Shown in pieces: positions 1,744 to 1,826 of a stretch of DNA of 34,472 nt. Position 1 is the stretch's first letter. Each line of letters starts with the position of its first letter. The notes under the pieces are model-generated. The model saw only the letters and a list, made by a program, of their open reading frames with translations. It was not told the origin of the DNA and did not search any database. This DNA is from a virus. The stretch is from UHGV virus genome UHGV-0176895. The stretch is one strand, 5' to 3'. The position numbers and the translations under genes were made by a program.

Positions 1744-1768
1744 AAAAAAGCCCTCATATCAGAGGGCT
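1744..1768 (-). terminator. Rho-independent terminator-like hairpin (stem 1749..1755 / 1762..1768, 6-nt loop) plus U-run, abutting the int start codon
   Basis: On the minus strand: AGCCCTC-TGATAT-GAGGGCT then UUUUU then AUG of int. A second hairpin lies at 1791..1811 (AGCAATCA / TGATTGCT), 16 nt after the cargo gene stop. Confidence 0.5.
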
Positions 1769-1826
1769 AAATTTAACTGTATATACAACCAGCAATCAAT
1801 GTGTGATTGCTATGAAACATACATTG

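Follow-up and report, generated by a model that had tools for sequence, protein, structure and literature searches.

A predicted LexA-repressed promoter and a Shine-Dalgarno-pairing leader hairpin in front of the integrase gene of a 186-type prophage

The synthesis of DNA recombinases is controlled in several described systems by elements that resemble those in front of int, the gene for the integrase of a P2-like prophage (Peduoviridae) of the 186 type in the 34,472-nucleotide (nt) virus genome UHGV-0176895 (the window, i.e., the whole stretch of DNA analysed). The element in question lies between int and a cargo gene that separates int from the repressor gene cI. Guerin et al. are said to have described LexA repression of integron integrase promoters in 2009. 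It has been established that these promoters (PintI) are repressed by LexA (Cambray et al. 2011, PMC3108266), whose box in E. coli and its relatives is CTGTatatatatACAG (PMC3108266). As in PintI, the gene controlled here encodes a tyrosine recombinase, a LexA box (CTGT-N8-ACAG) is placed inside the promoter core and synthesis would be tied to the SOS response. Unlike in PintI, the recombinase is a P2/186-family phage integrase, the LexA box is predicted, and the control module adds a CII-type inverted repeat and a hairpin that sequesters the Shine-Dalgarno (SD) sequence. The int gene of phage lambda offers a second parallel, being expressed from the CII-activated promoter pI for integration and through pL read-through and sib retroregulation for excision (PMC2951348). 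Both int genes would have a dedicated promoter with a site for a lysogeny activator (here a candidate site), and in both the fate of the transcript would be set by the promoter from which it originates. Lambda, however, sorts its transcripts at the 3′ end (sib, RNase III), while in the window the sorting would take place at the 5′ end, through a hairpin spanning the transcription start, and lambda int is not LexA-controlled. The CII proteins of 186 and lambda are unrelated (PMC7708051).

The protection of transposase genes from external promoters represents a third related mechanism, known for IS10/Tn10 (Davis, Simons and Kleckner 1985, as cited in PMC13181058). Read-through RNA of IS10 pairs a sequence upstream of the gene's own start with the ribosome-binding site, and the element's own transcripts start inside this pairing and stay translatable, which is the arrangement predicted for the window. 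The differences are that IS10 controls a transposase and the window a phage integrase, that in the window the start is predicted rather than mapped, and that in one clade of relatives a T-run is added, making the hairpin also a terminator. IS50 is protected from external promoters in a similar manner. A further comparison is with phage 186 itself, whose CII binds an inverted repeat with half-sites at -38 and -58 of the promoter pE, separated by two helical turns (PMC6593788). The element in front of int resembles 186 pE in half-site sequence and in the distance to the -10 hexamer, and 186 p95 in its kind of LexA operator, and the window phage carries counterparts of both pE and p95 sites in the expected places. 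In 186, unlike in the window, the int ATG overlaps the cI stop codon, leader, box and hairpin are absent, and the two control sites do not occur together before int.

In the window, positions 1744..1824 hold, in the reading direction of int, a CII-type inverted repeat, a predicted sigma-70 promoter, a LexA-type box within the promoter spacer and a leader hairpin that pairs the SD sequence of int (Table 1). The reading that we favour, with a probability of roughly 0.55, is that the hairpin stops transcription running on from cI and the cargo gene and keeps read-through RNA silent, and that int is transcribed from its own LexA-repressed and possibly CII-activated promoter. With odds slightly on its side, the segment as a whole would constitute a portable int control module.

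Table 1. Features of the window discussed in the text (positions count from its first letter; sequences in the reading direction of the feature)
Feature	Position	Strand	Description
int	691..1743	-	350-amino-acid (aa) P2/186-family tyrosine integrase; Pfam Int_N 3e-32, Phage_integrase 7e-22
T-run	1744..1749	-	six T; the first T also closes the hairpin 2 stem; int ATG follows at 1743
Hairpin 2	1749..1768	-	terminator-like stem-loop: AGCCCTC (1768..1762), loop TGATAT, GAGGGCT (1755..1749)
Predicted transcription start zone of int promoter	1762..1766	-	+1 near 1764, within the hairpin 2 5′ arm; from the position of the -10
-10 hexamer	1771..1776	-	TTAAAT; spacer of 17 base pairs (bp)
LexA (SOS) box	1777..1792		CTGGTTGTATATACAG; fills the promoter spacer; one mismatch to CTGT-N8-ACAG
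-35 hexamer	1794..1799	-	TTGATT; in relatives TTGACC, TTGACA or TTTACA
Hairpin 1	1791..1811	-	AGCAATCA (1811..1804), loop CACAT, TGATTGCT (1798..1791); dG -9.9, z -3.44
Right half-site	1799..1805	-	CACACAT; 1 mismatch to CAWACAT; final T shared with the -35, as its first base
Left half-site	1818..1824	-	ATGTATG; 0 mismatches to ATGTWTG; begins 2 nt past the cargo stop codon
Cargo gene	1827..3503	-	558 aa; DUF4041 + T5orf172 (Pfam); single-gene defence system PD-Lambda-1, PADLOC 1e-119
cI	3524..4120	-	186-type repressor; Pfam Phage_CI_repr + Phage_CI_C
Apl/Cox homologue	4216..4437		
CII site of the window's own pE	4470..4496		ATGTTTG-N13-CAAACAT in the first codons of cII; sole 0-mismatch match in the window
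cII	4470..4979	+	phrog_101 match 7e-57
Tandem LexA boxes	10073..10107	+	upstream of the tum/DinI-like SOS operon; perfect CTGT-N8-ACAG at 10075..10090
Tum/DinI-like open reading frame (ORF)	10260..10565	+	phrog_189 match 1e-30

The first line of evidence is conservation. The comparison covered 77 int loci from one genome per species and 80 from IMG/VR (numbered with an L), with the 110 nt before the int ATG aligned. The module precedes int in 42 of the 74 usable genome loci, corresponding to 41 distinct sequences from at least 15 genera, which include Escherichia, Klebsiella, Enterobacter, Raoultella, Citrobacter, Serratia, Yersinia, Rahnella, Pantoea, Pectobacterium, Brenneria and Mixta; the pattern CTG[TG]-N8-[AC]CAG is found 29-36 nt before the int ATG in 42/74 loci. 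The order of the parts runs from the repeat ATGTWTG-N12/13-CAWACAT, through a -35 that shares its first T with the repeat, a LexA-type box in the spacer and a -10 (TTAAAT/TAAAAT), to the hairpin and the ATG. Among 68 distinct module sequences, conservation peaks at the half-sites, the -35, the CTG and ACAG of the box and the -10, and is low in the spacer of the repeat. In several relatives the homologous promoter is called by an independent consensus scan, namely TTGACC-18-TAAATT in L008 (9/12 hexamer positions), TTTACA-16-TAAAAT in L037 (10/12) and TTGACA-17-AAAAAT in L003 (10/12). The int 5′ end together with its leader is present in 1113 of 5426 complete E. coli genomes. Among the lysogens with this int 5′ end and the greater part of the module are E. 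coli HS (NC_009800, near 918,200) and KO11FL/W. One locus whose integrase is 91% identical to that of the window (L016, 4940..5003) has a degraded module, with the box GTGG..ACAG and a shortened hairpin 3′ arm, GAGGTTTTTTTT, and may belong to a decaying prophage. Two contigs of metagenome-assembled genomes labelled Bacillota encode this enterobacterial type of P2-like integrase, 99% (L004, which also carries the module) and 51% (L068) identical, and are probably mis-binned or contaminant contigs.

The second line concerns the LexA box, which in the window is a 16-bp CTGT-N8-ACAG palindrome with one mismatch and an A+T-rich centre, occupying the 17-bp spacer between the -35 and -10 of the predicted promoter. 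Candidate sites were scored with a position weight matrix (PWM) trained on 20 E. coli LexA sites; the matrix is not a curated resource, and its scores serve as a lead. On this matrix the training sites have a median of 20.6 bits and a minimum of 12.3, and the annotated 186 p95 site, taken as a check, reaches 27.3 bits. Among all 20-mers on both strands of the window, the int box (23.2 bits) comes second after the tum-operon box (23.8), and is followed by the second tum box (16.0) and, at 10.0 bits, by the next unrelated site. Because 186 p95 is annotated as LexA-repressed, the tum box provides a positive control within the window. In the relatives, the 39 distinct int boxes all score between 14.2 and 26.9 bits, and many relatives carry an exact CTGT-N8-ACAG before int. 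As a sequence prediction, a LexA operator in front of int is well supported. The tandem tum boxes themselves lie directly downstream of gene A, before a 62-aa ORF (10133..10321, phrog_698) and the Tum/DinI-like ORF; 10073..10107 and the ORFs downstream of it are the expected SOS-induction operon of a 186-type phage.

The third line is the leader hairpin. An earlier note on this DNA had placed two hairpins at 1744-1811, the second of them terminator-like and adjoining the int start codon, with its stem GAGGGCU as the sole SD-like sequence of int, and in this it was accurate. Folded as a whole on the minus strand, 1730..1830 reaches -31.5 kcal/mol (z -4.74). Hairpin 2 alone has a minimum free energy (MFE) of -13.3 kcal/mol (z = -4.39), with none of 200 shuffles as stable, and ranks first among the terminator-like sites within 1..5000. 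Like intrinsic operon terminators, for which a stem of at least 5 bp and a loop of 3-8 nt are expected, it combines a G+C-rich 7-bp stem (5 G-C pairs) and a 6-nt loop with UUUUUU (1749..1744) directly 3′ of the stem, and it stands after the last gene of the cI-cargo operon. Unlike plain intrinsic terminators, it uses as its 3′ arm the SD sequence of the next gene and as its U-run the spacer between SD and AUG, and it has a promoter nested directly upstream. A single anti-SD match, GAGGG (1755..1751), is suitably spaced from the int ATG (spacer of 7 nt), and it falls entirely within the 3′ arm. An out-of-frame ATG at 1757 (56-aa ORF) was considered as an alternative start and set aside, as it has no SD sequence and is not in the int frame.

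Such leader hairpins are a regular property of module loci. The 36-nt leaders of 45 distinct module loci fold with a median MFE of -13.3 kcal/mol, 89% of them at or below -8 kcal/mol; int leaders that lack the module (29) have -2.6 kcal/mol and 0%, and the leaders of 51 other long ORFs of the window have -4.3 kcal/mol and 16%. By sequence, the stems fall into about 11 families with no relation to each other, and in each of them the SD sequence is paired, as illustrated by AGCCCTC/GAGGGCT, GCTCTCC/GGAGGGC, CTCTCCTAA/TTAGGAGAG, GTAGCCC/GGGCTAC, ACCCCCTT/AAGGGGGT, CACATTCTC/GAGGATGTG and TCCTCCATT/AATGGAGGA. Within the stem type of the window, one locus (L136) shows the compensatory double change AGTCCTC/GAGGACT, in which an altered base, at about -2, precedes every possible start site. 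When the 45 distinct leaders are aligned with MAFFT, which is blind to structure, the hairpin types have their arms out of register with one another, and a covariance model of the window type has 23 matches at E <= 1.5e-5, all of that type, with the others at E >= 0.09; leader structure was judged by folding each sequence singly with control sets.

The position of the hairpin relative to the promoter bears on which transcripts can carry it. In every hairpin type the 5′ arm starts 1-3 nt after the -10, with some stems extending into the -10, and several types have a purine exactly where the 5′ arm ends. Sigma-70 promoters start about 7 nt after the -10. With the arm at 1-3 nt and the start at about 7 nt past the -10, transcripts of the promoter itself cannot hold the whole 5′ arm and, given the predicted start, the full hairpin would exist only in RNA arriving from upstream. 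In about 11 stem families, a sequence upstream of the predicted start thus pairs with the ribosome-binding site, as in IS10. Across module loci, the predicted probability that the SD sequence is unpaired has a median of 0.03 in read-through RNA and of 0.42 when the RNA starts at the predicted +1; the window leader has 0.17 and 0.32, and its MFE goes from -13.3 kcal/mol in read-through RNA to -4.3 kcal/mol in RNA from the predicted +1.

The mechanism that we infer from these elements, their conservation, their geometry and their predicted folds would operate as follows. During lysogeny, RNA coming from cI and the cargo gene would reach hairpin 2 and, in the clade of the window, would terminate at the T-run, and in residual read-through RNA the int ribosome-binding site would be paired, so that int would be insulated from the repressor/cargo operon. 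LexA would at the same time hold the int promoter off. Upon DNA damage, LexA would be cleaved and the int promoter would fire, with the tum antirepressor operon of the same phage also switched on. Transcripts of the int promoter, beginning inside the 5′ arm, would lack the hairpin, escape termination and expose the SD sequence, yielding integrase for excision. Following infection, the int promoter may also be activated by CII, for integration.

Several findings weigh against this reading. The int promoter of the window agrees with consensus at only 8/12 hexamer positions and is not called by the promoter scan, its start site is itself a prediction, and in the hairpin type of the window there is no purine at the expected start positions, so that transcription would have to initiate on C or U. 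The box of the window has CTGG in place of CTGT, and within the family the promoter and the repeat of the window are the weakest. The repeat carries one mismatch and has 19 instead of 20 bp between half-site centres, the -35 of many relatives is near consensus (TTGACC, TTGACA), unlike that of the activator-dependent pE, and a similar repeat before ogr in Rahnella-type loci is hard to square with a lysogeny activator. Regarding the hairpin, a 3-bp CUC/GAG remnant survives truncation at +1, which leaves the accessibility of the window SD modest (0.32), and the leader is so short that geometry alone forces any SD hairpin into the start region. As to termination, the T-run is confined to the Escherichia/Klebsiella/Enterobacter/Citrobacter clade, the leaders of Rahnella, Serratia, Yersinia and Pantoea being without it; SD sequestration would be the conserved feature and termination a clade-specific addition.

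For the CII input of the favoured reading the odds are roughly even: CII control of the int promoter is plausible on sequence grounds. On one hand, the window half-sites ATGTATG and CACACAT correspond to the 7-bp inverted ATGTTTG/CAAACAT of the CII-activated promoter of 186, a sequence that the window repeats at its own pE and that the 186 record annotates, identical and in the same place, as the pE CII binding site. The right half-site has 0-1 mismatches in 42/42 related loci and the left one at most 1 mismatch in 34/42, variation in the half-sites being restricted to the W position without a clear pattern, and the spacer between them is free to vary. The right half-site lies 21-23 nt from the -10 at the int module, compared with 21 nt at 186 pE and 22 nt at the pE of the window, which would place the int half-sites near -38 and -58 of the predicted start, the positions reported for pE. 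On the other hand, the repeat ATGTWTG-N12/13-CAWACAT may not be a CII site at all, and could instead mark a recombination boundary of the cargo slot, bind another regulator or be the remnant of an upstream terminator, in which case the LexA promoter and the hairpin would stand without CII input. We consider this not far short of an even chance. The match to pE, the equal distance to the -10 and the conservation of half-sites over a free spacer all speak against it. In its favour are the 19-bp spacing, which departs in the window from the 20 bp of the pE class and is found in half of the loci (21 of 42, with 20 bp in 19), the position of the left half-site exactly at the cargo boundary, the ogr repeat and the near-consensus -35 of many relatives, which argues against strict dependence on CII. 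The ogr repeat is a second repeat, ATGTATG-N13-CATACAA, whose place before the gene of the late-gene activator would be unexpected for a lysogeny activator site; it is found in Rahnella-/Ewingella-type loci (L037 4577..4603 and L030 4575..4601, also L027, L029, L032 and L034); it lies upstream of ogr in L037 and L030, and in L037 it precedes a TTATAT hexamer by 22 nt, which is the geometry of pE and of the int promoter.

Hairpin 1 has as its 3′ arm five of the six -35 bases, the G next to them and the two nt with which the LexA box opens. Its pairing is kept by a double change in L002 and L005 (AGTAATCA..TGATTACT), and L084 carries a single uncompensated change (AGCAATCA..TGATTACT); the changed 3′ base of these variants sits between the -35 and the LexA box. 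Hairpin 1 was considered as a conserved RNA element and rejected, on the grounds of the L084 variant and of a median z of -0.85 for its equivalents in 58 distinct relatives. What is kept at this position are the half-sites and the -35, and not the RNA stem.

An alternative that would dispense with the sorting of transcripts is that hairpin 2 is the terminator of the cI/cargo operon and, at the same time, a constitutive attenuator. The int promoter would start at or before the hairpin, every int mRNA would carry it, integrase would always be low and the 5′ end of the message stabilised, with or without LexA control. The terminator anatomy of hairpin 2 agrees with such a role, as does the lack of a purine at positions 5-10 after the -10 in the hairpin type of the window, and a start only 2 nt upstream of the predicted +1 would keep the SD sequence paired (unpaired probability 0.17). 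The geometry tells against it, since with the 5′ arm 1-3 nt past the -10 in all types, and some stems reaching into the -10, a sigma-70 start that includes the whole arm is unfeasible if the -10 is right, and a purine is available in several types precisely where the 5′ arm finishes. We regard this alternative as unlikely.

Still less probable is a model along the lines of the earlier note, in which int would have no promoter of its own and be expressed only by read-through from cI and the cargo gene, attenuated by a hairpin that the cargo insertion created or brought along. It finds some backing in the weak, unflagged hexamers of the window and in phage 186, where int is expressed from the cI operon with its ATG overlapping the cI stop codon. 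The cargo genes found in relatives are difficult to reconcile with it. The 80 IMG/VR loci, whose integrases are 99-100% identical to that of the window, present 32 different upstream sequences, and many of them have no gene between cI and the module (e.g., L090 and L003). Elsewhere the slot between cI and int holds PD-Lambda-1, PDC-S20 KAP NTPase, PDC-M18A, Old, an AriA-like ATPase, HEC-01, AbiU and several unassigned gene sets, and altogether at least 15 cargo sets with no relation to each other accompany the module. Where the locus is of the Rahnella, Pantoea or Pectobacterium type, T-U-D-ogr precede int and are read in its direction, and the box and the SD hairpin are present behind a separate strong terminator. 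LexA box, -35 and -10 are moreover kept across genera at fixed spacing. In a comparison of the window with Klebsiella phage 4LV2017, which has a different three-gene cargo, megablast homology starts inside the hairpin, at 1755, the first base of the 3′ arm, and the more sensitive blastn extends it, at 80.6% identity, over almost the entire intergenic region. Together with the loci that have no cargo or other cargo, this homology delimits the cargo slot as running from the cI stop codon to the left half-site, with the module on the int side.

The hairpin is not, as the earlier note had it, a consequence of the cargo insertion, as the same element occurs without cargo, with unrelated cargo and behind ogr. 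Its proposal that cI/cargo transcripts end at the hairpin, or that int translation is occluded in them, holds in part: the terminator anatomy and an SD-burying hairpin kept across clades with unrelated stems make this a likely function, but int probably has its own promoter. Given the predicted promoter between the hairpins, with its high-scoring LexA operator and CII-type repeat, int probably does not depend on read-through at all. Finally, a trans-acting small RNA from the cargo 3′ untranslated region, made of hairpin 1, an AU-rich linker and the terminator hairpin, is most improbable, given that its shape yields only sub-threshold Rfam matches (RyhB, the best for the module, at 28.5 bits against a gathering score of 55; Trp leader at 22.4) with no family at or above the gathering threshold, that hairpin 1 is not conserved, and that conservation falls on DNA motifs (LexA box, hexamers, half-sites) and not on a seed region.

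With regard to the genomic setting, the host gene rcdA/ybjK (20..586, +) adjoins the prophage. Two 15-nt direct repeats, CTAACTTATTGTTTT (669..655 and 650..636, minus strand), separate the int stop codon from a terminator-like hairpin at 631..610; being near the host junction, the repeats at 636..669 may be arm-type sites of Int or part of the attachment site. On the other side of int, the cargo gene begins 20 nt past the cI stop codon, is read in the same direction and ends with the stop codon TAG (1829..1827). The presence of the Apl/Cox, cII and Tum/DinI-like genes indicates that the whole lysis-lysogeny and SOS-induction apparatus of 186 is in the window phage. A further 454-aa ORF (10873..12237, +; phrog_34659) is located between the replication gene A/tum region and the portal side, a site that corresponds to a known defence hotspot of P2, the gpA-gpQ interval (PMC13586616).

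A hotspot for cargo genes is located between the stop codon of cI and the int module. Defence hotspots have been noted between cI and int in a Vibrio K139-like phage (PMC9122126) and between int and primase in P2-like phages (PMC13586616), in neither case with mention of LexA or terminators. LexA-controlled recombinase promoters, activator-dependent int promoters and hairpins that protect from read-through are all known separately; their combination and its setting appear undescribed in the literature searched, in which no report was found of a LexA box, a CII site or a dedicated promoter before a P2-like int. By blastn, the isolated phages that match the module region are only KP12, vB_EcoM-813R9, the 4LV2017 group and Yersinia vB_YenM_31.17, and no P2 or 186 record is among them; the module may have gone unstudied because the model phages P2 and 186 do not carry it. 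Taken to its full extent, the proposal would be that of a three-input int switch that travels with int in P2/186-like phages, combining LexA, CII and a start-straddling hairpin that sorts transcripts by their origin. The module would also be the fixed right-hand border of the defence-gene slot, so that any cargo would fit without disturbing int control. This full version is tentative, and we would give it rather less than even odds.

If the favoured reading is true, the synthesis of integrase in a very common group of enterobacterial prophages would be wired to the SOS response of the host and not to the repressor operon as in 186, and the prediction of when such prophages excise would change. 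It would also explain why a hotspot for defence genes within the cI-int operon leaves the regulation of int intact, and would make available a compact part of natural origin that combines an insulator and a promoter.

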